Source: Dehalococcoidia bacterium (GTDB taxonomy: Bacteria > Chloroflexota > Dehalococcoidia > Lucifugimonadales > UBA3495). From it: a DNA stretch of 64,000 bases. Made by a program: the position numbers and the translations under genes. The stretch covers positions 80,691-144,690 of the forward strand of contig CBDBGS010000003.1 of the NCBI GenBank assembly GCA_965205385.1, given 5' to 3'. Under the pieces are notes generated by a model, which did not search any database, was not told where the DNA came from, and saw only the letters and a list, made by a program, of their open reading frames with translations. This document shows positions 16,264 through 64,000 of this stretch, piece after piece (the stretch's first letter is position 1; the number at the start of each line of letters is the position of its first letter).

Positions 16264-16280
16264 TGAAGTCTCCAGTGTGG

Positions 16281-18966: not shown

Positions 18967-20295
18967 ATGGGTTTCGCGCACCGGTTGGCCGAGTGGGTCG
19001 AAGGGACCTCATTCGATCAACTGCCCCCTCGCGTGCTGGATGCTTCCAAGGAGATGATGGTCAACGCGGCTGCCGTGGCTCTGGCGGGCGCGGCCCAGCC
19101 CGACGGCCTGGCGGTGACCAAGTTTGCTCAGGAAATGCGGGGCAATGGTAAATGCACCATCATCGGCATGGGGCTTCGCTCATCGCCGGTGTATTCGTGC
19201 CTGGCCAACGGGACGATGGTCAGGATGCTGGACTTCGACGACGAGTTGGCGGACTCGGCTGCCCACCCCAGTTGCGTGGTCTTTCCAGTGGTAATGGCCC
19301 TGGGCGAAATGCACGGGTTCTCCGGGGCTGATGTCCTGAACGCTTTTGCCCTAGGCTGCGAGGTGCTGTGCAAGCTATCCCGGAGCGGTGAGGCCCGCGT
19401 TGACGGGGCTATGGGAGGGATTTCCGCCGGACCCGTGGCAGCCGCGTCGGCGGCGGGCAGGTTGTTGGGGTTGGGCAACGACCAGCTTGGGGCGGCAATC
19501 GCCTCCGCGATGAAAGGCCCTCGGATAGATGAACCGGGTGCGGTCTCACTGGCCAGGGCCGTCCAAAGTGGGCAGGCGGCCATGAACGGCGTGGCGGCGG
19601 CTCTGCTGGCCCAGGAGGACTTCGGGAGAGTGGGTCTAGGTGTAGAGTCTCCCAACTCCGCAGGCCGCGACGAATACGGCGGTTTCTTCGCCAGCCTGGA
19701 CGCATCTCATAGCCTGGTAGACCCAGGGGTGGTATTAAAGCCATTCGCCTGCAACACTGCTTCCCATGCCACGGTCGACGCCGTGCTGCAACTGGCGCAG
19801 CAGTACCGGATCGAAGCGGACGACGTTGACTCGGTGCGGGTTGAAGCCCCTGTCTCGGCGGTCGATGCCCTGGCCTTCCCCAACCCACGAGACGGCTGGG
19901 AGGCCCGGGAGAGTCTGCACTACGTGGTAGCGGCGTCGCTGCTCTACGGACACCCTTTGATAGAACAGTTCAGCGATCTAGCCGTCCAGGAACCGGACGT
20001 TCTCGCTCTCATGGACCGGATCACCGTTGCGCCGTCACTGGAGCCATTGGCCTTCGCGCCACAGGCAAGCGAAGTCAGCGTGGTCCTGAGAGGCGGGCGG
20101 ACCCTTCAGCACCGGGTTGAGTTTCCCCGAGGCCACCCGGAAATGCCCCTGGAGAGGCAGGAGTTGGACGCCAAATTCCTGTACTGCAGCCGATACATCT
20201 TGCCTCCGGACCACATTGAGGGAGCGTTGGAGCAGTTCTGGGACCTGGAGAACGTTGCCGACGTTACCGGGTTGGCATCCATCCTGGGAGGGTGA
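18967..20295 (+). CDS. MmgE/PrpD-family protein (2-methylcitrate-dehydratase-like)
   Basis: 442 aa. The N-terminus ...LAEWVEGTSFDQLPPRVLDASKEMMVNAAAVALAG... and overall pattern are typical of the PrpD family. Confidence 0.8.
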   Translation: MGFAHRLAEWVEGTSFDQLPPRVLDASKEMMVNAAAVALAGAAQPDGLAVTKFAQEMRGNGKCTIIGMGLRSSPVYSCLANGTMVRMLDFDDELADSAAHPSCVVFPVVMALGEMHGFSGADVLNAFALGCEVLCKLSRSGEARVDGAMGGISAGPVAAASAAGRLLGLGNDQLGAAIASAMKGPRIDEPGAVSLARAVQSGQAAMNGVAAALLAQEDFGRVGLGVESPNSAGRDEYGGFFASLDASHSLVDPGVVLKPFACNTASHATVDAVLQLAQQYRIEADDVDSVRVEAPVSAVDALAFPNPRDGWEARESLHYVVAASLLYGHPLIEQFSDLAVQEPDVLALMDRITVAPSLEPLAFAPQASEVSVVLRGGRTLQHRVEFPRGHPEMPLERQELDAKFLYCSRYILPPDHIEGALEQFWDLENVADVTGLASILGG

Positions 20296-23694: not shown

Positions 23695-24033
23695 CTATTC
23701 GGCGAGAGGCACCGCTAGGGAGACCCGGAAATCCTCGCCGAGACTGCGGGCAATGTGACCGTGGCCCGTCAGGTCTTCAGCCACAAGCACGTCTCCGGGA
23801 ACCAACTGGACTTTGGCGCCGTCGGCAACCTCGAACTCCGCGGTCCCTGAGAGGTTCACCACATACTGACGCCGGGGCGCGGTGTGGTAGTCGGAGAACG
23901 ACGGGGAGGTGCGCTGGTTCAAGTTGATGTCCCCACCACCTATCGGGAACACTAGCTTGGCAAATTCGTCGCCTGTCAGGTCCTGGAAGTGGGACTCTCC
24001 ATCGTCGCCGGAGTAAACACGGACTATACGCAT
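23695..24033 (-). CDS. small cupin-like protein
   Basis: 112-aa beta-rich ORF (...YVVNLSGTAEFEVADGAKVQLVPGDVLVAEDLTGHGH...). Confidence 0.6.
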   Translation of the reverse strand: MRIVRVYSGDDGESHFQDLTGDEFAKLVFPIGGGDINLNQRTSPSFSDYHTAPRRQYVVNLSGTAEFEVADGAKVQLVPGDVLVAEDLTGHGHIARSLGEDFRVSLAVPLAE

Positions 24034-24211
24034 AACGGTCCTCCTTGTGGCTTAAATAGGCTGCCGCCAAACAGCTTAGCGGCAAGATGCAAGGGAAGCA
24101 ACTTTCCATGAAAATCATGCTGGACTCCTTTTCCCGCCGTGTTCCGGTTTATAATTACGCTACGAGAAGCACGGAGAGTGCAATCGGATAGCGGGAACCA
24201 AGGTGGCCAAT

Positions 24212-24496
24212 ATGAAGGAATGGATTACGCCAATAGGTGTAATTGCCATAATTGCGCTTCTCTCGTGGTTTATTTGGGACGATCTGAAAGACCTTCGGAA
24301 TGACGTACATTCAATCGAGGTGCGTCTTGCGGTTGTCGAAACGGACTTTGCCCATCTGAAGGAATACGTTGCCGAAATCAAGGACGACATAAAGAGCATC
24401 AAGGAAATCTTGGAAAGTATGCAATCAACCCGTGCCGCACATTCGGAACCATTACCTGGGGCGTCTCTGGCTTCTTACGCGGAATACGGGCAATAG
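24212..24496 (+). CDS. small membrane-anchored coiled-coil protein
   Basis: One N-terminal TM segment (WITPIGVIAIIALLSWFIW) is followed by a heptad-like charged helix. AAGGTGG precedes ATG 24212. Lies in the lower-GC islet. Confidence 0.5.
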   Translation: MKEWITPIGVIAIIALLSWFIWDDLKDLRNDVHSIEVRLAVVETDFAHLKEYVAEIKDDIKSIKEILESMQSTRAAHSEPLPGASLASYAEYGQ

Positions 24497-24513
24497 GGGG
24501 CTGCTTGCCGCAA

Positions 24514-25398
24514 TTACAGCGGCGTGTAAATCCAGCCTTCGCGTTTGGCTGCTTCCTCCTCAGTCATAGTCAACGCTTCCTCAGATGCCCGGTTACACCG
24601 GTTGGGGTCCGGCAACTTGCCGCAATCTTTTCGTGTGTCTGTCGGGTGATGGAACTCGCTCTTAGCCAACTCCCATCGAGCGGCCACAACCGCCGCAACC
24701 AAGGAGTCTAGGCCGTCGTGGCTTGTGAGATAGATTCCCCTGAAGGCGTCGAGATTGGCTATCCCTACATTCGATCTAGAGGCCAATTCCCGCAAGATTT
24801 CCTTTCGGTTTTCTTTAATCTCATTTGCATCCCCGTTGTCCTTGTATGGCCCATACAAGAGACCGAAAGACTCCATCGCTGCCCCCGGCATGACTTCAAG
24901 CAACGCTGGCCCGTTGCGTCCTGAGTCATCAAGCGGCGGAACTCGGAAGCCGGATGTGGACTCCCAAAGCCGGTGCAACATCTGCATCCCGTAGAAGGTC
25001 ATTGGCCTTATTCGAGTGTTCAAGCAGGACAAAGGCCTGATGGAGTAAAGGTCGCCTATGCGTAGTGGATGTTTCTTGCCCTTCTCCATCTGCGCCGCAT
25101 AGCCTTCACACTTGGCGTTGAAGTCACAAAGCTTCATGTTGGTAGCGGTGCTCCACAGATCAGGCATTTCGCCTGAATCAGGCTGCCAATACCTCGCGAA
25201 GGCTATAGGAACGGAAAACGGGAAGTCCATAGCCGCCACTGCATAGCTTTCTACCCTTAATTTCCCTATCAGGTCAGCTCGCTTGATGGAGCGGCAGTCA
25301 CTGATTGTCAACTCGGCACCTTGAAGCTGCCCCTCGGTTATCCAAGTATTGGTGTCGCGTTTGTCGCCGCTGAAGTCTACGCCGATTATCTTAACCAT
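24514..25398 (-). CDS. DUF429-like protein (predicted RNase-H-fold nuclease)
   Basis: N-terminal IIGVDFSGD, LLEVMPGAAM and HDGLDSLVAAVVA resemble the three conserved acidic motifs of DUF429 (memory-based). Lower-GC gene. Confidence 0.55.
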   Translation of the reverse strand: MVKIIGVDFSGDKRDTNTWITEGQLQGAELTISDCRSIKRADLIGKLRVESYAVAAMDFPFSVPIAFARYWQPDSGEMPDLWSTATNMKLCDFNAKCEGYAAQMEKGKKHPLRIGDLYSIRPLSCLNTRIRPMTFYGMQMLHRLWESTSGFRVPPLDDSGRNGPALLEVMPGAAMESFGLLYGPYKDNGDANEIKENRKEILRELASRSNVGIANLDAFRGIYLTSHDGLDSLVAAVVAARWELAKSEFHHPTDTRKDCGKLPDPNRCNRASEEALTMTEEEAAKREGWIYTPL

Positions 25399-25421
25399 GG
25401 TTTTCAGTTCGCAAGTTTGCG

Positions 25422-25865
25422 CTATAGAGTTAGTTCGGCGGGAATCAGGCGGCGATTTTTTGCGTCGGCGGCTAAGGCAAACGCCTCCAGCGCCATTGCT
25501 CCCAGCAATACCTTTTCGCTGTCAACGCCAAAGATGACGTGTACGTCGTCGGATTGACCTTCCAGTTCCAAGTTGGCCCGCCCAATGGAAAGCTCCCTTT
25601 TTGAACCATCAGCCAGGCTGAATAAACGTGATCGAATTCGTTCTATACCCAATTCCTCCAGGATGGACGCCGGAATCAGGGTATAAGACGCGCCTGTGTC
25701 AACCAACGCGTTCAGAGTACGGGATTGAGTCCTGCCCTGGTTCCAGATGACGAAATCGACGTAGAATGTCCCCACTTCGCCTCCAACTGTGGTTCCCGGG
25801 AGGATAATCCACTCCTCGGGCGGCTGGTGTTCTGGGGCCTTTGCAGTACTGCTTACCGTATCCAT
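25422..25865 (-). CDS. retropepsin-like (clan AA) aspartic protease
   Basis: ALVDTGASYTLIP active-site D-T-G motif in a 147-aa protein, 23 bp upstream of the DUF429-like gene. Confidence 0.65.
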   Translation of the reverse strand: MDTVSSTAKAPEHQPPEEWIILPGTTVGGEVGTFYVDFVIWNQGRTQSRTLNALVDTGASYTLIPASILEELGIERIRSRLFSLADGSKRELSIGRANLELEGQSDDVHVIFGVDSEKVLLGAMALEAFALAADAKNRRLIPAELTL

Positions 25866-25958
25866 TGGCCTATCCTCTTTATGATAGAATGGGCCACGGC
25901 CTGAAGCCTGCCGTTTCCGACTGTGACCGCCAGTATATCATCGCATAAGAGGAGCGAT

Positions 25959-29624: not shown

Positions 29625-30596
29625 ATGGCTGAACTATTGGGGCTAGGCTGCTCCCACGGCCCGATCATACTTACTCCTCCCGAGGTGTGGTCCAAGGGCC
29701 GGGAACGGGTATTCGCCAGAATACCGGACTACGAAGGCCCCGCTCAATTGCTGGAAGAATTGGGGCAGGACAACGGGCTGAGCCAGGACATAAGCGACCA
29801 GAAGAAGGTGATCGAGTCCTTCCGGGTGCTCCGGGAAAAGCTGCACGAGTGGAATCCGGATGTCCTGATGGTCATCGGTGACGACCAGGCGGAGAACTTC
29901 CTGCAAGATAATCTGCCGCCCTTCTGCCTCTACACAGGCGCGGAAGTGGATGGGTATCCGTTCCAACGGGGAGCGGCCCGCACCAACCTTTGGGACGCGG
30001 AACCTGAGACCAAGTTTTCTTTTAACTGCCCGAAAGAGTTCTCCAGAGACATGCGGAATTACCTGATCCGGGACGGCTTCGACATGTCCTCCTCCAGCTC
30101 CCTCAAAGGTTGGGACTGGGGATTGGCCCACGCCATCATCAACCCGTTGGTGTTCCTGGACCCTGACGGCAAGTTCCCACTTTTGCCCCTGTTCGTCAAC
30201 TGTTATGGCGAGGAAGCGGGGCCGGACTACCCTCCCCGCCCAACGCCCAGGCGGTGCTACGAGCTGGGCCAGGGGATTCGCCGGTTCCTGGACACCAGGG
30301 ACGAACGTGTGGCGGTGGTAGCCTCGTCCAGTTGGTCCCATAGCTTCTTGGCGCACAAATTCCAGTGCCGCTCAATCGACATCGAGACTGACCGGCGCAA
30401 TCTTGAGTTGGTGCGGACCGGCCAGGGCAGCAAGCTGGCTGAACTTTCCCCAGAGGAGATCCAGGAGTCGGGTGACCACGAAATTCTCAATTGGGTGATT
30501 GCCCTGGGTATCCTCGGAGACGTTCCCGCGGAGATCGTCGATGTCCGGGAGTCCCATACTCAACTGGCGTACCGTATCGCCGCTATTTGGAACTAA
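29625..30596 (+). CDS. class III extradiol dioxygenase (LigB-family) protein
   Basis: N-terminal LGLGCSHGP, ...VIGDDQAENF..., ...VVASSSWSHSF... follow the LigB-subunit pattern. Confidence 0.6.
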   Translation: MAELLGLGCSHGPIILTPPEVWSKGRERVFARIPDYEGPAQLLEELGQDNGLSQDISDQKKVIESFRVLREKLHEWNPDVLMVIGDDQAENFLQDNLPPFCLYTGAEVDGYPFQRGAARTNLWDAEPETKFSFNCPKEFSRDMRNYLIRDGFDMSSSSSLKGWDWGLAHAIINPLVFLDPDGKFPLLPLFVNCYGEEAGPDYPPRPTPRRCYELGQGIRRFLDTRDERVAVVASSSWSHSFLAHKFQCRSIDIETDRRNLELVRTGQGSKLAELSPEEIQESGDHEILNWVIALGILGDVPAEIVDVRESHTQLAYRIAAIWN

Positions 30597-30635: not shown

Positions 30636-31718
30636 ATGCATCTTGGCTTGATTATGGAATGCGACTACCGGTACGGCTCCACGCTGCAGGACTCCTTCGA
30701 AGAGGCCTTTAATCTTGTGGATGCCGCCGAGCGCGGGGAACTGGATGGGGTCTGGTTGGCCGAACGCCACTTCGCCGCGCCCCGGAACCCGTTGGATGAT
30801 GCGGGCGCGGGAATTCCTTCCGTGGTGTCGGCCCCGCTGATTTGGGCGAGTGCCATCGCCGCCCGCACCGAGCATCTGCGCATCGGTGTAGCGGTAAACG
30901 TCCTCCCATTGAACCATCCCATACGCATGGCCGAAGAGGTTGCCACCGTCGACCAGGTCAGCAAGGGGCGGTTCGACTTCGGTGTGGGCCGCAGCGGTTT
31001 TGCCCGGTCATACGAAGGGTATGGAATCCCGTACGGCGAGAGCCGGGAGCGGTTCCAAGAGTGTCTGGACGTGATCCTGGCCGCCTGGTCCAACGAGAGG
31101 TTTTCCCACCAGGGGAAGTATTATACGTTTGACAACGTGTGCGTGCTGCCCAAGCCCTACCAGCAGCCCTACCCTCCAGTCCGCATTGCCGCCACCACCA
31201 AGGAGACTTTCCCCAGGGTTGGGGCACAGGGTCACAACATCTTCGTGGGCTTGCGCGGCATGGACCGGCCTGACCTGGTAAAGGCGCTGGGAGAATATCA
31301 GCAGGCGTGGAGCGACTCGGGTCACGAGGGCAAAGGCGACGTCTTGCTGCGTATTCCGGTTTACGTGGCGGAGTCCGACCAGATGGCACTGGAAGAGGCG
31401 GAAGCCAGCACGATGCGTTCCTACCGCCGCATGGCGCAGAACTTTGCGGCTTCGGCGGCCGTATCCGGCGCCACTGCCGACGAAGAAAGGGCCGAACGGG
31501 GACAGCGGTTGGCGGCAATCACCTACCAGGACCTTTTGAAGGACAGGCTGGCCTACGGAAGCCCGGAGTCGGTCTCTCAGCAACTACAGGCCATCCAGGA
31601 AGAGTTGCAGCTCTCCGGGTTCATTTGCGAGATGAACGTGGGAGGGTTGGTGCCCAGGGAGCGGGTCTTGAACTCGGTGGAGCTGTTCGCTAAAGAGGTC
31701 GCGCCCTCCCTGCGTTAA
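30636..31718 (+). CDS. LLM-class (luciferase-like) flavin/F420-dependent oxidoreductase
   Basis: ...LDGVWLAERHF...RIGVAVNVLPLNHPIRMAEEVATVDQVSKGRFDFGVGRS... Confidence 0.85.
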   Translation: MHLGLIMECDYRYGSTLQDSFEEAFNLVDAAERGELDGVWLAERHFAAPRNPLDDAGAGIPSVVSAPLIWASAIAARTEHLRIGVAVNVLPLNHPIRMAEEVATVDQVSKGRFDFGVGRSGFARSYEGYGIPYGESRERFQECLDVILAAWSNERFSHQGKYYTFDNVCVLPKPYQQPYPPVRIAATTKETFPRVGAQGHNIFVGLRGMDRPDLVKALGEYQQAWSDSGHEGKGDVLLRIPVYVAESDQMALEEAEASTMRSYRRMAQNFAASAAVSGATADEERAERGQRLAAITYQDLLKDRLAYGSPESVSQQLQAIQEELQLSGFICEMNVGGLVPRERVLNSVELFAKEVAPSLR

Positions 31719-33234: not shown

Positions 33235-34335
33235 ATGATGGGACGAGTGGTGGTTCTCAAAGAGTACGGAAAGCCCTTTGAAATCGAAGAGTACGAGGTT
33301 CCTGACCCCGAACCGGGAGCGGTTATCTTACGCATGACCCAGGCGGGGATTTGCGGGTCCGACCTCCACACATGGCGGGGTGACCAGATCAACAATCCGT
33401 TGCCGCCCACAGGCCGGTTGATGGGCCACGAGGGCACGGGCGTAGTCGAGCGGCTGGGTGAAGGTGTCTTGACAGACACTTTGGGAGTGCCAATAGAAGA
33501 AGGAGACCGCATCGTCTACTCGGCGGTCTTTCCCTGCTATCACTGTCACCTATGCCTGAAAGGCGACACCAACTGGTGTGTCAACCGGGGTGGAGCGGGG
33601 GCCGGGACCTGGCCGTATTTCAGGGCGACCTACGCCGACTACTTGTATCTGCCGCCGCGACACCCGTTGTTCCGGGTGCCCGACGTGCTGCCTGACGACA
33701 TCCTGGGGCCGGTCAACTGCGCTATGGGCACCGTTACCACCGGGTTGATGCGCGCCGGAGCAAGGGAAGGCCACAACGTGGTTATCCAAGGCGCGGGCGG
33801 TTTGGGGCTGAACGCCACGGCCATGGCCAAGGATATGGGCGCTGACAGGGTAATCGTCCTGGACCGTTTAGAGAACCGCCTGGAGCTGGCCGAGGAGTTT
33901 GGAGCGGACTACACGATTAACATCGAGGAATTCAACACGGTTGAGATGCGTGTCCAGCGGGTGAAGGAACTCACGGGCGGCCGCGGCGCGGACACGGTAA
34001 TGGAGCTGGTGGGCCGGGCCGAGCTTTTGGCCGAGGGGATAGACATGCTCAGCAACGGCGGGACATTCGTGGAGATCGGCGACATCGTCCGAGGCCGTGA
34101 AGTGTCCATCGACCCATCGAAGTTGCTGCCGGGGAAGAACATCGTTGGATCATTGATGTACCGCCCCGACCTGTTGCCGACTCTGCTCAACTTCCTGGTA
34201 CGCAACCTGGATAAGCTGCCCTTTGACAAAGTCGTTTCCCACAAGTTCCCGCTGGCCGACATCAACGAAGCCTTCCCCCAAGCCGAGTGGGACCAGCGCC
34301 AAACCACGGTTACGCGGGCCATGCTGGTGCCGTAG
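33235..34335 (+). CDS. Zn-dependent alcohol dehydrogenase family protein
   Basis: ICGSDLH...GHEGTG zinc motif, structural-zinc Cys cluster (CYHCHLCLKGDTNWC), GAGGLG. AGGAGG precedes ATG 33235. Confidence 0.85.
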   Translation: MMGRVVVLKEYGKPFEIEEYEVPDPEPGAVILRMTQAGICGSDLHTWRGDQINNPLPPTGRLMGHEGTGVVERLGEGVLTDTLGVPIEEGDRIVYSAVFPCYHCHLCLKGDTNWCVNRGGAGAGTWPYFRATYADYLYLPPRHPLFRVPDVLPDDILGPVNCAMGTVTTGLMRAGAREGHNVVIQGAGGLGLNATAMAKDMGADRVIVLDRLENRLELAEEFGADYTINIEEFNTVEMRVQRVKELTGGRGADTVMELVGRAELLAEGIDMLSNGGTFVEIGDIVRGREVSIDPSKLLPGKNIVGSLMYRPDLLPTLLNFLVRNLDKLPFDKVVSHKFPLADINEAFPQAEWDQRQTTVTRAMLVP

Positions 34336-34423
34336 GGGTGGTCATAGACAACAATCTATCTTAGCTCCGAGCGCAACGTGGCCGGGGAGGAACTTCCTTC
34401 CCCGGAAGAAGGAGATCACTGCC

Positions 34424-35494
34424 ATGAAATTCGGCCTGATGTATGAGATTCAGATACCGGAACCGCATTACCCGGGGGTGGAGCAGGAGCGGTACAAGCA
34501 GGTTTTGGCCCAGGTGGACCTGGCGGACGAGGTTGGTTTCGATTACTTCTGGACGGTTGAACACCATTTTCTACGGGAGTTTTCCCACTGCTCCGCGCCC
34601 GAGGTGCTCTACGGGGCAATATCACAACGCACCAAGCGGATCCGCATCGGCCATGCGGTGGCGCTGCTGCCGGGCCAGTACAACCACCCCGTTAGGGTGG
34701 CGGAACGGGCCGCGGTGCTGGATATCCTGAGCGATGGACGCATGGACCTGGGCACGGGCCGGTCGACGACGCTCATCGAGATGGACGGCTTTGAGGTAGA
34801 CCCGGAGCAAACCAGGGCCCAGTGGCGGGAAGCCATTGGCATGATTCCCAAGATGTGGACGGAGGACCGCTTCTCCCACCAGGGAGAGTTCTTTAACATC
34901 CCGGAACGGTCGGTGATCCCTAAGCCGGTGCAGCAACCTCATCCTCCGATGTGGGTGGCGTGCAGCCAACCCGACTCCTTCCGCCAAGCAGGGGAATTGG
35001 GGCTGGGCGTGCTGTGCTTCAACCTGGGCGGCTACGCACAGATGGAGGAACGGGTCGCCGCCTATCGGGAAGCGATTAAGACCGCCAACCCTGTCGGCAA
35101 GTTCGTCAACAACCAGGTTGCCGCGCTTTGCATCGTGCATTGCGGGGAAGACGACGAGGAAGCCCGCCGCGTCGGCGGCCAGGAAGGGGCCTGGTTCGTG
35201 CAGCAGGCGGAAAATTTGTATGCGCCGTGGGCGGGACGCCAGGTGCCCGATTCCTACAAGTTTGCGGTTGACGCCGTGCAGACCGAGCGCGCGGACAAGA
35301 CCGTCGAGGACCACATTGCGTCAGGGGCATTCGCCATGGGCAACCCGGATACGGTCATCGAAGTGATGAAGAAATACCAGGAAGTGGGTGTGGACCAGGT
35401 ATTGTGTTTCGTTCAGCCCGGAAGGTTGGAGCACACGCGGATCATGGATTCAATCAAGCTGATGGGCCGCCACGTGATCCCCTACTTCAGGTAG
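34424..35494 (+). CDS. LLM-class flavin/F420-dependent oxidoreductase
   Basis: MKFGLMYEIQ...FDYFWTVEHHF...RIGHAVALLP... AAGGAG precedes ATG 34424. Confidence 0.85.
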   Translation: MKFGLMYEIQIPEPHYPGVEQERYKQVLAQVDLADEVGFDYFWTVEHHFLREFSHCSAPEVLYGAISQRTKRIRIGHAVALLPGQYNHPVRVAERAAVLDILSDGRMDLGTGRSTTLIEMDGFEVDPEQTRAQWREAIGMIPKMWTEDRFSHQGEFFNIPERSVIPKPVQQPHPPMWVACSQPDSFRQAGELGLGVLCFNLGGYAQMEERVAAYREAIKTANPVGKFVNNQVAALCIVHCGEDDEEARRVGGQEGAWFVQQAENLYAPWAGRQVPDSYKFAVDAVQTERADKTVEDHIASGAFAMGNPDTVIEVMKKYQEVGVDQVLCFVQPGRLEHTRIMDSIKLMGRHVIPYFR

Positions 35495-56615: not shown

Positions 56616-56969
56616 ATGGCAAGCCCTGGAATTGCCACCGGACTGAAGGGAGAGCGGCAGACCATAGTCTGCGAACACAACGTTGCCACTCACGTGAACA
56701 AGTTCAGCACCCCGTCCATGATCGGTCTGATGGAGGGGGCGTCCATAGAGGCTGTCAGGGGAACGCTGGATGATAGCCAGACCTCGGTGGGGTACGAAGT
56801 CAATGTCCGTCACATGGCTCCGGCCGACATAGGCGCGACCATCACCGCGCATGCGGAGTTGGTTGAGGTGGACCGCAACCGGCTATTGTTCAACGTGGTG
56901 GCCTTCGATGGCGAGACCAAGATCGGCGAAGGGACTCACCGGAGGGCGATTATCGCCGTCAACCGGTGA
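56616..56969 (+). CDS. hotdog-fold thioesterase-family protein
   Basis: 117 aa; ...FSTPSMIGLMEGASIEAV...GYEVNVRHMAPADIGATITAHAELVEVDRNRLLFNV. Confidence 0.65.
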   Translation: MASPGIATGLKGERQTIVCEHNVATHVNKFSTPSMIGLMEGASIEAVRGTLDDSQTSVGYEVNVRHMAPADIGATITAHAELVEVDRNRLLFNVVAFDGETKIGEGTHRRAIIAVNR

Positions 56970-57074
56970 GATTCGAGGGTGTCTGGAGCCAATTCACGAT
57001 TCAACTCGCATAAGAGCGTATGCTAAAATTCCATCTGCTAAGTCCTAATTCGGTTGTCGTTTGGAGCGGCTGAT

Positions 57075-58343
57075 ATGGCCAACATGGAACACGTACAACT
57101 CGTAAAGCGGGGCCGGGATACCGTGGCCCGTTGGCGTGAGGAGCACCCCGGCGAGAACCTGGACCTCAACGCCTCATACATGAGCTATGCGCGCATCCCA
57201 CAGGTGGACCTATCCGGAGCGGACATCCGGAATTCCGACTTAATGGGCGCGACACTGCCCCGGGCCAACCTCTCCGGGTGCCGGATGAACCCCTGCCACA
57301 TGTACCGGGCCGACTTGCGCCAGGCCAACGTGACACGCGCCCTCTTGAACGGGGCGAACCTGCGGGGGGCCAGGTCTTCCCGGGCCGACTTTTCCGGTTC
57401 GGATATGGACCGCATCGTCCTCTCGGACGCCGACCTGTCGGGCGCGAACCTATCGGGCACCAACCTTTCCCGCGCCAACCTGACCGGGACCAACCTCAGC
57501 GGCGCGGACCTAACTGGGGCTGTCCTGAACCGGGCAAATTTGACCAGGACCGACCTGACCGACGCCATCCTGGACGGCTCCGACTTCTACGAGGCTATTT
57601 TCAACAACGTCGGGATGCAGGGCACGCAGTTTAGCGGCAGTATCGTTGGCTACACGGTGTTTCAAAACTGCGACTTCAGCGGAGCCCAGGGGTTGGATGC
57701 GGTCCGGCATGACGGCCCCAGCACGATCGGAATTGACTCCTTCTACAGGTCCAGGGGTCAAATCGCCGAGGCGTTCCTAAGAAACTCCGGCGTTCCCGAA
57801 GGAATGGCGGAGTTTCAGGCATCCATAGTGGGTGCGCAGATCGCCTTGGGAGACTGTTTCATCTCATGCGCGGACGAGGATGAGCCGTTCGCGGTGACCC
57901 TGAGAAACGATCTGCAAGGTCATGGAGTCCGCTGCTGGGTGTTTGCCGAGGGTGCCAGGGGCAGCGCCCTGGTGGAGAGGCACAGCACTTCGGACCAGGA
58001 AGAAGTGGAGCGGTGGGTCCGGCCATATGACAAGCTGGTGGTCATTTCTTCGTCGCACACTCTGGAGAGCGAGAGCGTGCGCAACGACCTTCGACAGGCG
58101 CAGGAGCAGCAGGAGTCCAAGGACCAATGGCTTCTGTTCCTAGCAGCCTCAGACGGAGCTTTTTCAACCCAGAGCCGGAACCGCCAGGCCCGCAATATCG
58201 CGACGGAGCACGTCGTGTTCAATCTCCAAACCAGGGAGTCGGACTCGGAGACCTACCAGCAACAATTAGCCCGGTTGGCGGATGCGCTGAAGCAGACGCA
58301 ACCCCGCAGCGCGGGAGTCCCGGTGGTGGACCTCCAGCTCTAG
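57075..58343 (+). CDS. pentapeptide-repeat protein fused to a C-terminal TIR-like domain
   Basis: About 30 A(D/N)LxG-type pentapeptide repeats span residues about 45-215. From about nt 57855, CFISCADEDEPFAVTLRNDLQGHGVRCWVF...DKLVVISSSHTLESESVRNDLRQA resembles bacterial TIR domains. Confidence 0.7.
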   Translation: MANMEHVQLVKRGRDTVARWREEHPGENLDLNASYMSYARIPQVDLSGADIRNSDLMGATLPRANLSGCRMNPCHMYRADLRQANVTRALLNGANLRGARSSRADFSGSDMDRIVLSDADLSGANLSGTNLSRANLTGTNLSGADLTGAVLNRANLTRTDLTDAILDGSDFYEAIFNNVGMQGTQFSGSIVGYTVFQNCDFSGAQGLDAVRHDGPSTIGIDSFYRSRGQIAEAFLRNSGVPEGMAEFQASIVGAQIALGDCFISCADEDEPFAVTLRNDLQGHGVRCWVFAEGARGSALVERHSTSDQEEVERWVRPYDKLVVISSSHTLESESVRNDLRQAQEQQESKDQWLLFLAASDGAFSTQSRNRQARNIATEHVVFNLQTRESDSETYQQQLARLADALKQTQPRSAGVPVVDLQL

Positions 58344-58387
58344 TCGTATGCGGGCCTCTCAAGGAGGCTATCCCGCGTATAATAATG

Positions 58388-58421
58388 GCCCCGCCCCTGA
58401 ATAAGGGCGGGGCTATCTTTT
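58388..58421 (+). terminator. rho-independent terminator after the TIR-fusion gene
   Basis: GCCCCGCCC-ctgaataa-GGGCGGGGC followed by TATCTTTT. Confidence 0.65.
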
Positions 58422-58435
58422 GCCGTTGGGTTGGC

Positions 58436-58459
58436 GGATGAGGGGTTTGCCCCTCATCC
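58436..58459 (-). terminator. perfect 10-bp hairpin 24 nt downstream of RdhA/QueG-like copy 1 (no clear U-tract)
   Basis: GGATGAGGGG-tttg-CCCCTCATCC. Confidence 0.4.
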
Positions 58460-58483
58460 GATAGTCATGAGCGCTGGGGAAGG

Positions 58484-59758
58484 CTAGATGTAGTCTTCCT
58501 CTTCGTACATCATTTCCAGGTTGTCCCTGCTCTGTGCCGCGCCGCGGGAGACTTCCTCCTTGAGGAGTTCCATCATCTCATCGGTGATGACGCCGCCGGA
58601 GGCGCGAGCCTGGTCCTTGAACTGGCTGAAGGCCCACTCTTCGGTGTCGCCAGCAGGCATTTCAAAGAAGTCGCGGTCGAATACCGGCATGTCGCCAGGG
58701 CCGAAGTAGCCCTTGCCCTCGAGGATGTAACCTTCGAGGTCGTGGGTGCCCTTACCCAGGACCTGACCTGTGTCGGCATAGTGTTCCATGACGTTCTTCA
58801 GGCCGTACTTCTGGATGGGGCATACCTTCATGCAGACACCGCAACCGAGGTAGCGGGCCATGACGGGGCGGCAGCGCTTGAAGTAGAGCTTGTTCTTCTC
58901 AAGACCGCGCCACCAGATCTTGTCGCGCATGAGGGCGCGGCCGGGGCAGCGGTTGACGCACACCTGACAGACCTGGCAGAAAGCGTGGATGCCATAGTCG
59001 ACGGGCTTGTCATAGCCAACGTTGGCGTCGGTGGTGATCATCATGATCCGGCAGCGGGAGCCCTCATGGGGGGTCAACAGGTAGCCGCAGGCTCCGAGCT
59101 GGCCGAGGCCGGCTTCCACGAACATTGGGATATAAGGACCGGTGTTGTCGTTGGGGCTGTGGACCTGGGCGCGATAGCCGAGGGAGTTGATGAAGTTGCC
59201 CAGTTCGAGTCCCGCCGCACCCTCTGTCCGGTAGGTGCTGGAGTGGACGATCTCAGCGTCGACGCTGGGGATGGTCTGGGTGGGCTCGTAGTCTTGTTCA
59301 AAGGCCAAGCATATAACGTGGGGGAACTTCACCCAATCCTTTTTGCTCTGGTACGTGTAGCGGTGATCGTAGTAGGTGATACCGACTTCCAAGAAACCAA
59401 GTTCACGGGCCTTGGACTTGATCTGTTCGGTGACGTCGTCGCCGGTTGGCTCGACGGAGGGTTCCTGGTCGCCCGTCAGCCGTGCGGCCATAATCAGGGG
59501 CCTGTTGAGCTTATCGTGTTCCTTGCGGATCTCACGCATCTCAACATGCTGGTCCCGGAATGTGTTGGCCCAGTCGCGGGACGCCCGCTCGGTGATGTTC
59601 ATGGTTTCCAGCGGGTATTCGCGGGCGTACCAGTCGACTTCGCGCTGGTTGAGGGGAATTCCGGGCACGGATTCCAATTCTTCGGGAACGGGGATCGTTA
59701 CTGATGGTTCCCCGGGGAACTTGCCAGGTCGTACGACCTCGTGGCCTATCTTTAGCAT
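58484..59758 (-). CDS. RdhA/QueG-superfamily 2x[4Fe-4S] protein, copy 1 (no signal peptide)
   Basis: FCQVCQVCVNRCP and CRPVMARYLGCGVCMKVCP motifs, preceded by VEAGLGQLGACGYLLTPHEGSRCRIMMITTDA. GGGAGGAG precedes ATG 59758. 424 aa. Confidence 0.75.
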   Translation of the reverse strand: MLKIGHEVVRPGKFPGEPSVTIPVPEELESVPGIPLNQREVDWYAREYPLETMNITERASRDWANTFRDQHVEMREIRKEHDKLNRPLIMAARLTGDQEPSVEPTGDDVTEQIKSKARELGFLEVGITYYDHRYTYQSKKDWVKFPHVICLAFEQDYEPTQTIPSVDAEIVHSSTYRTEGAAGLELGNFINSLGYRAQVHSPNDNTGPYIPMFVEAGLGQLGACGYLLTPHEGSRCRIMMITTDANVGYDKPVDYGIHAFCQVCQVCVNRCPGRALMRDKIWWRGLEKNKLYFKRCRPVMARYLGCGVCMKVCPIQKYGLKNVMEHYADTGQVLGKGTHDLEGYILEGKGYFGPGDMPVFDRDFFEMPAGDTEEWAFSQFKDQARASGGVITDEMMELLKEEVSRGAAQSRDNLEMMYEEEDYI

Positions 59759-59812
59759 GCGCTCCTCCCTGTATGTTCGGTTCTAGGGTATGGTAAATCC
59801 AAGATATGGCCA

Positions 59813-59841
59813 AACATACTTGCTCGTCATATATTTGTCAA
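59813..59841 (-). promoter_or_regulatory. near-consensus promoter TTGACA-N17-TATGTT for copy 1
   Basis: -35 at 59841..59836 and -10 at 59818..59813, giving a leader of about 48 nt. Confidence 0.55.
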
Positions 59842-59957
59842 CCCTATTGGGATGGAACACTTATATTATGTTTCGTGATATGGATAAGCGCGTATTTTGA
59901 TGGTCACGCCCGTCGTAGCTCTATCCCGCTTTGTCTATGCCGGAACGAGAAGGGATG

Positions 59958-59994
59958 AACGAAAAGTAAGGGGCCGACAAGCTGTCGGCCCCTT
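59958..59994 (-). terminator. rho-independent terminator of copy 2
   Basis: AAGGGGCCGACA-agc-TGTCGGCCCCTT (12-bp stem), followed on the minus strand by ACTTTTCG. Confidence 0.65.
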
Positions 59995-60054
59995 GTGGTT
60001 GCCTGCTTGACACCGTGGTGGGGGATCCCACCTGGGCGCCGGGTTGGCCAAGGT

Positions 60055-61341
60055 TTAGATGTAGTCTGCGTCGATGTTGTTCATCTCGTCCATCATCGCG
60101 ACGACGTCGTATTCCTGGCCGAGAGCCTTGACCATCTCGCCCTTGAGCGCTTCGAGCATCTCCTCCGTGACCTCGCCGCCGGTGCTGCGGGCCTTGGATT
60201 TGAACTCTTCGAACGCATGGTCTTCGATGGTGCCGGTGGGCATGTCGAAGAAGTCGCGGTCGAATACTGGCATCTCACCAGGACCGAAGTAGCCCTTGCC
60301 CTCGAGGGTGTAGCCTTCGAGGTCGTGGGTGCCCTTACCCAAGACCTGACCTGTGTCGGCATAATGTTCCATGACATTCTTCAGGCCGTACTTCTGGATG
60401 GGGCATACCTTCATGCAGACACCGCAACCGAGGTAGCGGGCCATTACGGGACGGCAGCGCTTGAAGTAGAGCTTGTTCTTCTCAAGACCACGCCACCAGA
60501 TCTTGTCGCGCATGAGAGCGCGGCCGGGGCAGCGGTTGACGCACACCTGACAGACCTGGCAGAAAGCGTGGATGCCATAGTCGACGGGCTTGTCATAGGC
60601 AACATTGGCGTCGGTGGTGACCATCATCAGCCGACAGCGGTTGCCCTGGTGAGGGGTCAACAGGTAGCCGCAGGCTCCGAGCTGGCCGAGGCCGGCTTCC
60701 ACAAACATGGGGATGACCGGGCCGGTGGCGTCGCTGGAGTGGATTACGTGGGCCTTGTAACCCAGGGAGCGGATGAAGTTGCCCAGCTCTAGACCGGCGG
60801 CGGCCTGCGTCCGGTAGGTGCTGGAGTGGACGATCTCCGCGTCGACGCTGGGGATGGTCTGTGTGGGTTCGAAGTCCTGCTCATAGGCCAAGCAGATGGC
60901 GTGGGGCAGGAAGGTGAAATTCTTCTTGCTCTGGAACTCATAGCGATGGTCGTAGGGGGCAATTCCTACTTCCAAATAACCGAGCTCGCGAGCCTTGTCT
61001 TTGATCTGCTGGGTTACGTCATCACCGGAGGGCGCGCTGGCGGGCTCCATCTCGGCGGTGGCGCGGCCCGCAAGGATCAGACCGCGGTTGAGCTTGTCGT
61101 GCTCTTTGCGGATCTCACGCATCTCAACGTGAAGGTCGCGCATGGCGTTGGACCAGTCACGGGAGGCGCGCTCCGTGTAGTTGATCGATTCCAGCGGGTA
61201 TTCGCGGGCATACCAGTCGACTTCCCGGTTGTTGAGAGGAATACCGGGTACGGTTTCCAACTCCTCGGGTACGGGAATGGTGACGTCTACCTCGCCCCAT
61301 TTTGATCCGGGCCTTACGACCTCATGGCCGATCTTTAGCAT
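60055..61341 (-). CDS. RdhA/QueG-superfamily 2x[4Fe-4S] protein, copy 2
   Basis: Same motifs as copy 1. GGGAGGAG precedes ATG 61341. The track ORF start at 61413 adds 24 unlikely residues. 428 aa. Confidence 0.75.
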   Translation of the reverse strand: MLKIGHEVVRPGSKWGEVDVTIPVPEELETVPGIPLNNREVDWYAREYPLESINYTERASRDWSNAMRDLHVEMREIRKEHDKLNRGLILAGRATAEMEPASAPSGDDVTQQIKDKARELGYLEVGIAPYDHRYEFQSKKNFTFLPHAICLAYEQDFEPTQTIPSVDAEIVHSSTYRTQAAAGLELGNFIRSLGYKAHVIHSSDATGPVIPMFVEAGLGQLGACGYLLTPHQGNRCRLMMVTTDANVAYDKPVDYGIHAFCQVCQVCVNRCPGRALMRDKIWWRGLEKNKLYFKRCRPVMARYLGCGVCMKVCPIQKYGLKNVMEHYADTGQVLGKGTHDLEGYTLEGKGYFGPGEMPVFDRDFFDMPTGTIEDHAFEEFKSKARSTGGEVTEEMLEALKGEMVKALGQEYDVVAMMDEMNNIDADYI

Positions 61342-61409
61342 ATCTTCTCCTCCCAATAAAATCCCTCTATGGACGCACACGGGACGCACGCATCCGAGTT
61401 CTGCCCACC

Positions 61410-61438
61410 ACAATATATGCCGACGTTGCGGATGTCAA
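61410..61438 (-). promoter_or_regulatory. near-consensus promoter TTGACA-N17-TATTGT for copy 2
   Basis: -35 at 61438..61433 and -10 at 61415..61410, giving a leader of about 62 nt. Confidence 0.55.
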
Positions 61439-61658
61439 TAGTGTACAGAGAGCAATTTTCATATCCCTTGGATATTTCACAATCCTAGCCGAGGTGAGAT
61501 AGTGATTGGTAGAAAACAAGGCCGCAAGGTCTACGCGAATCGTAATGAATGTACGAACTCTTCCAGTCTCGGCTACGTCTTGCTTGGCCGGTTGCACCAG
61601 GGGCATTCCGCAGCGGTGGGAAGGTAGGCCCCGAAAAGTCACGGGCCGGTGTTTCCCC

Positions 61659-61699
61659 CAGAAAATAGGCTGTCCGGGGGAATTACCCCCGGACAGCCT
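61659..61699 (-). terminator. rho-independent terminator of copy 3
   Basis: AGGCTGTCCGGGGG-aatta-CCCCCGGACAGCCT (14-bp stem), followed on the minus strand by ATTTTCTG. Confidence 0.7.
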
Positions 61700-61742
61700 G
61701 TCTTGCGAGGTTGCCAAGACCGGGTATTATTACCCGTTACAA

Positions 61743-63023
61743 TTAGATGTAGTCTTGGTCCTGGTCCATCATGAGCAACTGGTCGGTGGTCTCCCGGCTG
61801 AGATGGTTTTGGATCTCACTGCGGAATTCCTCCATCAGCTCGTCCGTGATCTCCCCGCCGGTGCCCTTGATCCGGTCCTTGAACCGGTCGAAGGCCCATT
61901 CGAACTCGGAACCGTGAGGCATGTTGAAGAAGTCCCGGTCGAAGGTCGGGAGCTCCCCGGGGCCGAAGTAGCCCTTTCCTTCCAGCGTGTAGCCTTCGAG
62001 GTCGTGGGTGCCTTTGCCCAACACCTGACCGGTAAGGGCGTAGTGCTCCATGACGCTTTTCAGGCCGTACTTCTGGATCGGGCATACCTTCATGCAGACG
62101 CCGCAACCCAGGTATCGGGCCATTACGGGGCGGCAGCGCTTGAAGTAGAGCTTGTTCTTCTCAAGTCCCCGCCACCAGATCTTATCGCGCATTAGGGCGC
62201 GGCCCGGGCAGCGGTTGACGCAGACCTGGCACACCTGGCAAAAGGCGTGAATGCCGTAGTCGACGGGCTTGTCGTAGGTGACGGCCGCGTCTGTGGTGAC
62301 CGAGACGAGGCGGCACCGGTTTCCCACGTGGGGAGTCAAGAGGTAGCCGCAAGCGCCCAACTGGCCCACGCCGGCTTCGACGAACATGGGTATGTAGGGG
62401 CCGGGGGCGTCGCCGGAACCGGTTACCTGGGCATGGTAGCCGTGGGAGCGGATGAAGTTACCCAACTCCAGGGCCGCCGCGCCTTCCGTCCGGTAGGTGC
62501 TGGAGTGGACGATCTCGGCGTCGACGCTGGGGATGGTCTGAGTGGGCTCAAAGTCCTGCTCGTACACCAGGCAAATGACGCTGGGGTAGTAGGAGAGCAG
62601 GCTCTTCTTGCTCTGGTAAGTGTAGCGGTGGTCGAAGGCGGTGATTCCGACTTCGCAGAAACCCAGTTCCCGGGCCTTCTGCTTGATTAACTCGGTGAGG
62701 TCTTCACCGTTGGGTTCAGCTGTTGGCTCCAAGTCGGAAGTCAACCGGCTGGCCATAATCAAGGCGCGGTTGAGTTTCTCGTGTTCTTTGCGGATCTCGC
62801 GCATTTCCGCGTGTTGATCGCGCAGAGTGTTTGCCCAGTCGCGGGACGCGCGCTCGGTGACGTTCATGCTTTCCAGGGGGTACTCCCGCGCGTACCAGTC
62901 GACCTCCCGGTTGTTGAGAGGAATGCCAGGAACGGTTTCCAGCTCTTCAGGCACGGGGATATTAACTTCCGGTTCGCCCAACCTTTGGCCGGGCCGGACT
63001 ACTTCATGGCCGATCTTAAGCAT
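61743..63023 (-). CDS. RdhA/QueG-superfamily 2x[4Fe-4S] protein, copy 3
   Basis: Same motifs as copies 1 and 2. GGGAGGAG precedes ATG 63023. 426 aa. Confidence 0.75.
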   Translation of the reverse strand: MLKIGHEVVRPGQRLGEPEVNIPVPEELETVPGIPLNNREVDWYAREYPLESMNVTERASRDWANTLRDQHAEMREIRKEHEKLNRALIMASRLTSDLEPTAEPNGEDLTELIKQKARELGFCEVGITAFDHRYTYQSKKSLLSYYPSVICLVYEQDFEPTQTIPSVDAEIVHSSTYRTEGAAALELGNFIRSHGYHAQVTGSGDAPGPYIPMFVEAGVGQLGACGYLLTPHVGNRCRLVSVTTDAAVTYDKPVDYGIHAFCQVCQVCVNRCPGRALMRDKIWWRGLEKNKLYFKRCRPVMARYLGCGVCMKVCPIQKYGLKSVMEHYALTGQVLGKGTHDLEGYTLEGKGYFGPGELPTFDRDFFNMPHGSEFEWAFDRFKDRIKGTGGEITDELMEEFRSEIQNHLSRETTDQLLMMDQDQDYI

Positions 63024-63072
63024 GTCTGCTCCTCCCAGGGTCGTTTAGTTGATGAAATGAGCCGTGAGCAAA

Positions 63073-63101
63073 ACAATATACTTGGTGCCCAGGATTGTCA
63101 A
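63073..63101 (-). promoter_or_regulatory. near-consensus promoter TTGACA-N17-TATTGT for copy 3
   Basis: -35 at 63101..63096 and -10 at 63078..63073, giving a leader of about 43 nt. Confidence 0.55.
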
Positions 63102-63215
63102 CGGAAATTCGTGTCCCCGGATGATAATATCCTGGTAACGGCAGAACTGTTCTATTGGTGTCCGTGATTCGTAACGAGATCAGTTCTCATGGTCTAGTTC
63201 TCCGCCAAGCGGTGG

Positions 63216-64000
63216 CTACTGCCCGGTGCGCCGCGCGATCATGGCGTCGGCCAGAGGGCTCGCGCCGGAGCGGACGACCACGTTTACCAAAGATGGCAGG
63301 CCGGAACCGAAGGCGCGTTCCACAGCGGGCGCCACGTCGTCGGGTTTCTCCACGTATTCGGAGTAGCCGCCGATTGCGTCGACCAGTTTGTCGTATCTAA
63401 TGAATCGAAGGTCCGTGCCCACGGCGCGGTCGAAATAGGCCAACTGGAAAGTCTTGTCGATCCCCCAGGTGGAATCGTTGCCCATGACCACGGTGATGGG
63501 GAGGTTGTGCCGGATGCAGGTGTCGTACTCCATGGTATAAAAGCCGAACGAACCGTCGCCCATTAGGACCAGCACCTTGCTTTCAGGATGGGCCAGCTTG
63601 GCGGCCATACCGTAAGGGATACCTGCCCCCAAGTGGCTGAGAGGGCCCAAGCGAATGAACCTGCCCGGTTTTCGCGCCTTCAGATAGGAACGGCCCCACT
63701 GGACGTAGTCGCCGCCGTCCATGACGATGAACGTGTCGTCGTCCACCAGGCTTTCTATCCTGGTGTATATGTCCAGCGGGTGCATCGGCTCCTCGCCGGT
63801 GGCCCTGGAACGCAGTTCATCCATCCAGCCGTTCCGGTCCGCTTCCAACTGGTCGGTCCATGCTGAAATGTCGGACTTCGCCCCTCGCTTCGCCGCGGCG
63901 GTAAGCTGCTCGACGATTGCGCCGAGGTCTCCGAGGAGACTGACGGATACGCCGCGGTTGCGGCCTATTTCCGCCTCTGAAGGGTCGGCTTGGATTATTT
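63216..64000 (-). CDS. thiamine-pyrophosphate enzyme (acetolactate-synthase/oxalyl-CoA-decarboxylase-like), C-terminal part; runs off the right edge
   Basis: TPP-binding motif GAGIPYGMAAKLA...LMGDGSFGF...NDSTWG. The frame stays open upstream of the listed TTG (...IIQADPSEAEIGRNRGV...) to the window end. Confidence 0.8.
   Translation of the reverse strand, partial: IIQADPSEAEIGRNRGVSVSLLGDLGAIVEQLTAAAKRGAKSDISAWTDQLEADRNGWMDELRSRATGEEPMHPLDIYTRIESLVDDDTFIVMDGGDYVQWGRSYLKARKPGRFIRLGPLSHLGAGIPYGMAAKLAHPESKVLVLMGDGSFGFYTMEYDTCIRHNLPITVVMGNDSTWGIDKTFQLAYFDRAVGTDLRFIRYDKLVDAIGGYSEYVEKPDDVAPAVERAFGSGLPSLVNVVVRSGASPLADAMIARRTGQ

Follow-up and report, generated by a model that had tools for sequence, protein, structure and literature searches.

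Three tandem genes encode predicted cytoplasmic RdhA-type reductases

A 64,000-nt stretch of contig CBDBGS010000003.1 from a Dehalococcoidia bacterium of the marine SAR202 clade (hereafter the window) carries a tandem array of three genes, g1, g2 and g3, whose products are very probably cytoplasmic reductases of the reductive dehalogenase (RdhA) type, with Fe-S clusters and a predicted corrinoid cofactor. That they would act on an organohalide is a reading towards which we lean with considerably less confidence. The first-pass annotation of this DNA had described three co-oriented genes of 424–428 amino acids (aa), about 80% identical, and this description held: the products have 424, 428 and 426 aa, all three genes lie on the minus strand (Table 1), and identity to g1 amounts to 79% for g2 and 78% for g3. 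The motifs that it had listed could likewise all be read in the translations. The proteins begin with MLKIGHEVVRPG and contain the stretches IKxKARELGxxEVGI and VEAG(L/V)GQLGACGYLLTPHxGxRCR....TTDA, together with both Fe-S motifs, of which the first is FCQVCQVCVNRCP in all three proteins (C261-x2-C-x2-C-x3-CP in g1 numbering).

Nonsynonymous relative to synonymous change (dN/dS) between the paralogues was 0.15–0.24, with no nonsynonymous differences (pN = 0) throughout the Fe-S domain, and databases hold >1800 relatives of these RdhA-like proteins. We therefore conclude that g1–g3 are real genes under purifying selection.

Sequence and structure searches favour RdhA over epoxyqueuosine reductase

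Searches with the single proteins gave matches to the NCBIfam reductive dehalogenase model TIGR02486 (RDH) at E values of 1e-27 to 3e-30 (98–106 bits), confined to aa ~134–317, and far weaker matches to the epoxyqueuosine reductase (QueG) model TIGR00276 at E values of 1e-8 to 1e-9 (33–36 bits against a cutoff of 200), confined to aa 214–321. Both fall below the curated cutoffs. The only Pfam matches of the three proteins were to Fer4 models, all sub-threshold, with no match to the QueG-specific models, including DUF1730. No curated family in Pfam or NCBIfam covers the proteins, whether QueG or another characterised family over its full length.

Searches of the PDB pointed the same way. A single sequence matched PceA of D. 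hafniense at 8e-24, NpRdhA at 4e-20, PceA of S. multivorans at 7e-16 and QueG at 1e-3, and a family profile built from 101 sequences matched NpRdhA at 8e-43, the two PceA proteins at 3e-39 and 1e-34, and QueG at 5e-11. The AlphaFold2 model of full-length g1 had a mean predicted local distance difference test score (pLDDT) of 95.1 and a predicted TM-score (pTM) of 0.92. Its 36 best PDB matches were all RdhAs (TM-score, TMq, 0.48–0.56), followed by QueG (TMq 0.35) and then by nitroreductase and the B12 chaperone CblD. When only the core was modelled (aa 100–320; pLDDT 93.7), TMq rose to 0.85–0.90 against PceA and 0.81–0.84 against NpRdhA (root-mean-square deviation 2.9 A), both at probability 1.0, compared with 0.58–0.66 against QueG and 0.40 against CblD.

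In the model, then, the core with its cofactor and Fe-S parts closely resembles bona fide reductive dehalogenases in structure, and what is predicted is a full RdhA-type cofactor domain rather than a ferredoxin domain alone. Membership of the RdhA/QueG superfamily, as first proposed from the motifs, is borne out by both the profile searches and the structural matches; because TIGR02486, the PDB sequence and profile searches and the structural comparisons all favour RdhA over QueG, the proteins clearly fall on the RdhA side of it.

The RdhA proton-donor pair is invariant in the subfamily

In RdhAs a dyad of Tyr and Lys (or Arg) has been proposed to donate the proton, and its catalytic roles have been documented (PMC7565698). 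In the profile alignment, the pair Tyr176/Arg237 of g1 corresponds to Tyr246/Arg305 of PceA, so that the basic residue is Arg as in PceA and not Lys as in NpRdhA, which shares a Tyr and basic-residue dyad. NpRdhA Tyr426 lies one profile position from Tyr176 in its own alignment, and PceA Asn272 aligns to g1 Asp204. Tyr176, Arg237 and Asp204 were invariant in all aligned relatives at ≥50% identity (35/35). As far as sequence can indicate, this dyad is the strongest argument that dehalogenase-type chemistry may have been kept in the subfamily.

The terminal modules are replaced rather than added

The first-pass annotation had presented an N-terminal module and an extension of about 95 aa after the second cluster as extra parts, on the view that classical RdhA proteins end shortly after that cluster. 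The solved chains do not agree with this view, since ~73, ~65 and ~135 residues follow the CP of the second cluster in PceA of S. multivorans, PceA of D. hafniense and NpRdhA, respectively, and the figure for g1 is in fact 110. Ahead of the helix equivalent to KARELG, PceA has ~133 residues and g1 ~105. The N-terminal module does have a sequence of its own, in that the first ~80 residues of g1 gave no sequence alignment to any PDB entry, but given its length it is not additional.

For the 203 residues outside the core (aa 1–99 and 321–424) there is no superposition on the periphery of solved RdhAs, although the model places them with confidence and evidently packed on the core. Because solved RdhAs have terminal parts of comparable length, and because TMq falls from 0.81–0.90 for the core to 0.48–0.56 for the full protein, the modules are different, not extra: they are of ordinary length, differ in sequence and, by the drop in TM-score, in structure, and have been replaced rather than added.

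Relatives at 35–49% identity cover g1 residues ~20–370, with C-terminal alignment reaching aa ~360–372 (YGL..V.EHY..TG.VLGKGT..LEGY), from which it follows that most of both modules mark a broader clade whose members come mainly from Chloroflexi. Within it, a single homologue is labelled Euryarchaeota, and some members are fused to Opp-type ABC ATPases. Only the SAR202 subfamily has the last ~55 residues, which form three helices and an acidic tail. The 120 closest homologues all end in DYI (120/120), and the N-terminus is exactly MLKIGHEVVRPG in 87 of them. The acidic tail is the sole part of the g1 model with low confidence, and we infer that it may act as a docking peptide.

The proteins lack export, anchor and partner features

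Consistent with the earlier claim that the proteins are leaderless, none of the three has an RR pair within its first 60 residues, as a twin-arginine translocation (TAT) signal would require, and none has a hydrophobic N-terminus, the maximum 19-residue Kyte-Doolittle average in that region being 0.14–0.59. No transmembrane (TM) segment was found in the three proteins, in that no 19-residue window reached a Kyte-Doolittle value of 1.6, which sets them apart from transmembrane RdhAs with their one to three fused N-terminal TM helices. Residues 4–25 of g1 are modelled as a beta-hairpin with pLDDT above 90. The earlier failure to see an rdhB-like gene was also upheld: 0/55 open reading frames (ORFs; ≥40 aa, positions 56900-64000) had two or more hydrophobic segments. 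Being leaderless and anchorless with a predicted RdhA-type cofactor domain, the proteins fit the earlier suggestion of a cytoplasmic reductase.

No vestigial second cobalamin domain was detected, as the family profile matches only once in these proteins of 424–428 aa (a single core), and Pfam and NCBIfam searches of the three proteins revealed no PDR-like reductase domain. We found no ferredoxin, flavodoxin or reductase gene near the array. An Rfam search of the whole window gave no match, and hence no cobalamin riboswitch or other known RNA upstream of the genes.

The paralogues are old and occur across SAR202

A collection of species-representative genomes contained 221 relatives. We compared the 80 best of these (80–100% identical to g1) in their 21-kb stretches; since these loci were picked by likeness to g1, apparent conservation among them is inflated. 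All 80 belong to metagenome-assembled genomes (MAGs) of Dehalococcoidia, SAR202 or Chloroflexota, and the g1/g2/g3 subfamily is limited to SAR202/Dehalococcoidia. Several carriers appear to be sponge-derived, judging by isolate names (RHO, IRC, SB06xx, bin22, bin87) and by one homologue deposited under Geodia barretti; others are pelagic (Io17-Chloro-G4, casp150, UBA). Source annotations of the homologues disagree, ranging over "hypothetical protein", "reductive dehalogenase domain-containing protein", "epoxyqueuosine reductase", "ferredoxin" and "PreA subunit".

Each 21-kb locus holds one to four copies. In a neighbour-joining tree of 125 copies from the 80 loci, three clades were resolved, with g1 represented by one copy in each of the 80 loci, g2 by 35 copies in 33 loci, and g3 in 10 loci, the latter two clades being sisters. 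The existence of orthologous g1, g2 and g3 clades across species implies that the duplications predate the divergence of these species, so the "local expansion" of the first-pass annotation does not hold if a recent event was meant.

Within the g1/g2 pair, a 474-nt tract (codons 210–367 of g1) is 94.1% identical, compared with 80% overall, and synonymous differences (pS) fall to 0.08–0.16 within it from 0.5–0.7 elsewhere. Owing to this identity and this fall, we attribute the tract to a gene-conversion event spanning the Fe-S domain. At the protein level the paralogues differ most at aa ~61–160 (including the linker), aa 181–240, the first ~20 residues and the C-terminal tail; the stretch at aa 181–240 holds a loop (aa 200–209) that adjoins the aligned active-site residues. 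A variable N-terminal region, linker, loop and tail combined with an identical Fe-S domain suggests different substrates served by the same electron-transfer machinery, that is, old paralogues differing in substrate.

A second paralogous family also came to light, with members of ~415 aa that are 53–61% identical to g1 and mostly end in GDE, not DYI. In one context (L083 10001-11248; P0361) it is a solitary gene beside an ATP synthase operon, RsmG and IlvD; other members were met on contigs of Mb scale and on a marine fosmid from the deep sea (HF4000).

Comparison with known systems

The closest described counterpart is the "simplified cytosolic" RdhA-like type (average 395 aa; Chloroflexota and Desulfobacterota; no vestigial domain) of Han et al. 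(2025, Microbiome, PMC12219181). Like that type, g1–g3 come from Chloroflexota and lack a TAT signal, TM helix, RdhB, vestigial cobalamin domain and reductase domain; they are also of comparable size, about 400 aa (here 424–428). The published set comes from cold-seep sediments, and the likeness is one of described features. The text of that study does not contain SAR202-wide orthologous arrays, an invariant DYI tail, conserved neighbours or extreme conservation. Marine Dehalococcoidia RdhA-like genes without TAT or RdhB have been noted since single-cell genome studies (summarised in PMC7506110), and g1–g3 fit none of the four RdhA domain organisations listed by Fisher et al. (PMC10463259). 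The architecture is thus already known, having been named in 2025, and g1–g3 are a strikingly conserved, uncharacterised subfamily rather than a categorically new system.

The catabolic RdhAs of aerobic marine bacteria (NpRdhA, 4RAS/6ZXU; BhbA; JtRdhA) are likewise cytoplasmic, without TAT or RdhB, and NpRdhA is the best profile match. Unlike g1–g3, NpRdhA carries a vestigial duplicate of the cobalamin domain (~320 extra N-terminal residues), which makes it a monomer; our family profile matches both this copy (73–221) and the active one (321–571). It also has ferredoxin and ferredoxin-reductase genes nearby (PMC10463259), while JtRdhA and BhbA have an added PDR-like reductase domain.

With respiratory PceA (S. 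multivorans 4UQU; D. hafniense 8Q4H), g1–g3 share a single cobalamin core, a domain with two [4Fe-4S] clusters and a similar overall length. PceA differs in its TAT signal, RdhB anchor and periplasmic-face topology, and its N-terminal (~133 aa) and C-terminal (~73 aa) parts give no sequence alignment to those of g1–g3 and superpose poorly (full-length TMq 0.50–0.54). QueG (5D08, 5D6S) belongs to the same superfamily and is also cytoplasmic, with a cobalamin core and two [4Fe-4S] clusters; it has an Asp-based catalytic loop and a tRNA-binding C-terminal domain, whereas in g1–g3 the RdhA-type Tyr/Arg pair is conserved and the match to QueG is much the weaker.

Proposed function and alternatives

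The reading we put forward as the likeliest, by a modest degree, is that g1–g3 are cytoplasmic RdhA-type enzymes that remove halogens from imported natural organohalides. A soluble low-potential donor of the ferredoxin or flavodoxin type, not encoded nearby, would feed single electrons to the outer [4Fe-4S] cluster, from which they would pass via the inner cluster to the corrinoid in the nitroreductase-like core; the reduced cobalt would then attack the carbon-halogen bond, and Tyr176, tuned by Arg237, would protonate the carbon. The role would be catabolic or detoxifying, not respiratory, and the most likely substrates are natural bromo- and chloro-aromatics of sponge hosts or of marine dissolved organic matter. 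SAR202 has been described as a dark-ocean clade of global distribution and high abundance (PMC5864207), and several sponge genera harbour SAR202 Chloroflexi as abundant symbionts, where Bayer et al. speculated that their abundance tracks aromatic natural products of the host (PMC6306507).

Several observations weigh against dehalogenation. The TIGR02486 scores of 98–106 bits lie under the curated cutoff of 160.35, and none of the three proteins matched Pfam Dehalogenase (PF13486) at E≤1. Below 50% identity, Tyr176 is kept in 24/66 relatives and Arg237 in 48/66, so the wider clade may not share the chemistry. No ferredoxin, reductase, regulator or transporter gene stands directly beside the array, whose neighbours are housekeeping genes, and this setting looks more like that of a core function. 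Across 22 syntenic genomes from other species, a set chosen by likeness to g1 and hence inflating apparent conservation, the g1 orthologue was the most conserved gene of the syntenic block (median identity 85%), ahead of IspH (80%), a thiamine diphosphate (ThDP) enzyme (79%), OTC (67%), Der (66%) and RsmI (61%). Conservation of this order goes far beyond what substrate-specialised RdhAs typically show.

Most of these points would suit a second explanation, to which we give a smaller but real share of belief, namely that fold and cofactors are the same and the chemistry is another: SAR202 would have a core B12/Fe-S reductase of housekeeping grade whose substrate carries no halogen, much as QueG reduces an epoxide. 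The constant termini (a MLKIGHEV start in most homologues and the DYI end), the terminal modules that do not superpose on solved RdhAs, and the placement of both this and the 53–61%-identical paralogous family alone amid housekeeping genes are further points in its favour. Dehalogenation is preferred because the subfamily shows no variation in the RdhA-specific Tyr/Arg proton-donor pair, the core is far nearer PceA and NpRdhA than QueG, and one to four diverged paralogues per locus, together with a second paralogous family, fit substrate diversification better; the conservation itself is also overstated by the choice of loci.

A broader and decidedly speculative proposal is that the DYI-tailed family constitutes a B12-dependent reductase system at the core of SAR202, one that arose before the clade radiated and is better conserved than enzymes of central metabolism, acting on a ubiquitous class of marine compounds that may be halogenated dissolved organic matter or contain no halogen. 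Its paralogues would form homo- or heterodimers, because they lack the vestigial domain that makes catabolic RdhAs monomeric, and a dedicated redox partner would dock at the invariant acidic DYI tail. Were this so, a significant route in deep-ocean and sponge carbon and halogen cycles would have been overlooked.

It is hard to credit that g1–g3 are respiratory RdhAs with an export signal and anchor that were missed or lie elsewhere in the genome. In favour are the host class, Dehalococcoidia, and the fact that a single-sequence PDB search ranks respiratory PceA of D. hafniense first; against this stand the absent RR motif, the N-terminus modelled as a folded beta-hairpin, the lack of any ORF with two or more TM segments at 56.9–64 kb, and the O2-dependent enzymes encoded in the window (GMC oxidoreductase, LigB dioxygenase and luciferase-like monooxygenases), in keeping with the description of SAR202 as aerobic heterotrophs (PMC5395668). 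It is equally improbable that the proteins are corrinoid-free, ferredoxin-like electron carriers with a relic cofactor domain, as the sub-threshold Fer4-only Pfam matches might suggest, given that the model covers the entire cofactor domain with pLDDT above 90 and matches corrinoid-loaded RdhAs on superposition, and that the active-site Tyr and Arg and the AGLGQLG loop are invariant and under strong purifying selection. The least credible option is that they are QueG orthologues: several homologues are named "epoxyqueuosine reductase" by JGI and TIGR00276 weakly matches the Fe-S region, but that match is far below its cutoff, QueG structures rank under all RdhAs, and there are three to four paralogues per locus.

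If g1–g3 do dehalogenate natural organobromines and organochlorines, aerobic SAR202 would enter the marine halogen cycle by a reductive, B12-dependent and non-respiratory route, adding to the B12 demand in the ocean. The SAR202 genome papers examined report no reductive dehalogenase gene, and the proposed part of SAR202 in the degradation of recalcitrant organic matter rests on expanded oxidative enzyme families. The type itself has already been met in metagenomic surveys. A compact, soluble, single-domain RdhA is an attractive target for heterologous expression, where respiratory RdhAs are difficult.

Gene features and neighbourhood of the array

Each gene is preceded by the ribosome-binding site GGGAGGAG. 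The mechanical ORF of g2 begins farther upstream, at a TTG at 61413, and most of the 120 closest homologues begin MLKIGHEV. The promoter-like sites of g1–g3 (TTGACA-17-TATxxT) match at 10/12 positions, and with a separate promoter-like site and terminator-like hairpin for each gene, the array looks like three monocistronic units.

Table 1. Features of the array and its immediate flanks, in window positions.
Feature	Position	Strand	Remarks
g1, RdhA-like, 424 aa	58484..59758	-	Last gene of array; orthologue in 80/80 related loci
g2, RdhA-like, 428 aa	60055..61341	-	Start chosen at ATG/MLKIGH, GGGAGGAG before it
g3, RdhA-like, 426 aa	61743..63023	-	Intact ORF
g1 N-terminal module, aa 1-99	59462..59758	-	Modelled beta-hairpin and helices, high confidence
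g1 core, aa 100-320	58799..59461	-	Predicted corrinoid-binding nitroreductase-like domain and 2x[4Fe-4S] ferredoxin domain; core model match to PceA/NpRdhA
g1 C-terminal module, aa 321-424	58487..58798	-	Distal helices and acidic DYI tail subfamily-specific
g1 Tyr176 codon	59231..59233	-	Profile alignment with PceA Tyr246 proton donor; in STYRT motif
g1 Arg237 codon	59048..59050	-	Profile alignment with PceA Arg305 and NpRdhA Lys488; in GSRCR
g1 first cluster motif CQVCQVCVNRCP	58943..58978	-	C261, C264, C267, C271; columns invariant in 101 sequences
g1 second cluster motif CRPVMARYLGCGVCMKVCP	58817..58873	-	C296, C306, C309, C313 (C296-x9-C-x2-C-x3-CP); columns invariant in 101 sequences
Gene-conversion tract, g1 copy, codons 210-367	58658..59131	-	474 nt, 94.1% identity to g2 vs 80% overall
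Gene-conversion tract, g2 copy	60241..60714	-	Same 474-nt tract
Promoter-like site 5′ of g1	59813..59841	-	TTGACA-17-TATGTT
Promoter-like site 5′ of g2	61410..61438	-	TTGACA-17-TATTGT
Promoter-like site 5′ of g3	63073..63101	-	TTGACA-17-TATTGT
Terminator-like hairpin 3′ of g1	58388..58413	-	
Terminator-like hairpin 3′ of g2	59968..59994	-	
Terminator-like hairpin 3′ of g3	61667..61699	-	
Acetolactate synthase (ALS)-like ThDP enzyme, upstream neighbour	63216..64000 (clipped by window end)	-	Co-oriented; 45/80 loci, 68-99% identity to window copy
Pentapeptide-repeat and TIR_2 protein, 429 aa	57054..58343	+	Convergent to g1; 65/80 loci

The array has as its neighbours the ThDP enzyme, the pentapeptide/TIR protein, RsmI, an MFS transporter, OTC and Der. 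An upstream TP_methylase considered as a corrin methylase proved to be RsmI. Across the related loci the recurring order is the co-oriented ThDP enzyme upstream, one to four RdhA-like genes, and the convergent pentapeptide-repeat/TIR_2 gene, which may reflect either functional linkage or inherited synteny. The ThDP enzyme, complete in another locus (L001 4872-6542; 556 aa, TPP_enzyme_N/M/C), is closest to models of acetolactate synthase, 2-hydroxyacyl-CoA lyase and oxalyl-CoA decarboxylase and falls under every NCBIfam cutoff; with its median of 79% identity in the 22 syntenic genomes, its conservation is unusually high. The pentapeptide/TIR protein has N-terminal repeats (Pfam E 1e-42) and a C-terminal TIR_2 domain (E 2e-8), and gave no PADLOC match; its orthologues are 45–66% identical outside the closest relatives of the window and are kept even where other synteny has gone. 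Two genes from the array (56616-56969, plus strand) lies a gene for a 117-aa hotdog-fold protein matching the fluoroacetyl-CoA-specific thioesterase FlK (Pfam E 4e-32), present in 24/80 loci. A link of this FlK-like protein to halogenated substrates is possible.

The contexts of distant relatives are suggestive but single out no substrate, with two in catabolic clusters with transporters (L081 and L082) and two solitary among housekeeping genes (L083 and L084). In L081 (2082-4370), as also in P0138 and P0310, ~40%-identical relatives follow an Opp/Dpp-type ABC-transporter ATPase as a C-terminal fusion; the L081 fusion lies in a transporter operon followed by amidohydrolase, HMGL-like, amidase and HpcH/HpaI aldolase genes. 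L082 encodes two distant relatives of 385 aa each (6522-7679 and 10001-11158), clustered with genes for TonB-dependent receptors, MFS transporters, SDRs, MaoC dehydratases, a nitroreductase and amidohydrolases, and is a catabolic island of what appears to be a Gram-negative organism.

The segment around the array had been called rich in catabolic enzymes. This is true of window positions 1–45 kb, which hold a GMC oxidoreductase, four enoyl-CoA hydratases, two luciferase-like monooxygenases, LigB, SDRs, ADHs, a nitroreductase and amidohydrolases and thus abound in families of oxidative and catabolic paralogues of the kind reported from SAR202, but not of the immediate flank at 45–58 kb, where most genes are housekeeping. 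The four enoyl-CoA hydratase/isomerase paralogues lie within 5 kb (13450-18571), adjoining an MmgE/PrpD protein (18967-20295) and a Na/sulfate-type symporter, and the luciferase-like monooxygenases are at 30636-31718 and 34223-35494, with the LigB dioxygenase at 29625-30596; these sets resemble the paralogue expansions described for SAR202.

Two further observations concern other parts of the window. At ~23700-25900 the GC content is 0.526, against ~0.61 for the window, and the stretch, possibly an islet that was acquired, encodes a small cupin-like ORF, a 294-aa ORF with a sub-threshold DUF429-like match and a 147-aa retropepsin-like aspartyl protease. At 5089-6262 (minus strand), overlapping ORFs encode the C-terminal (5089-5778) and N-terminal (5747-6262) ThDP domains apart, which could represent a two-subunit enzyme of the sulfopyruvate/phosphonopyruvate decarboxylase type or a frameshifted gene.

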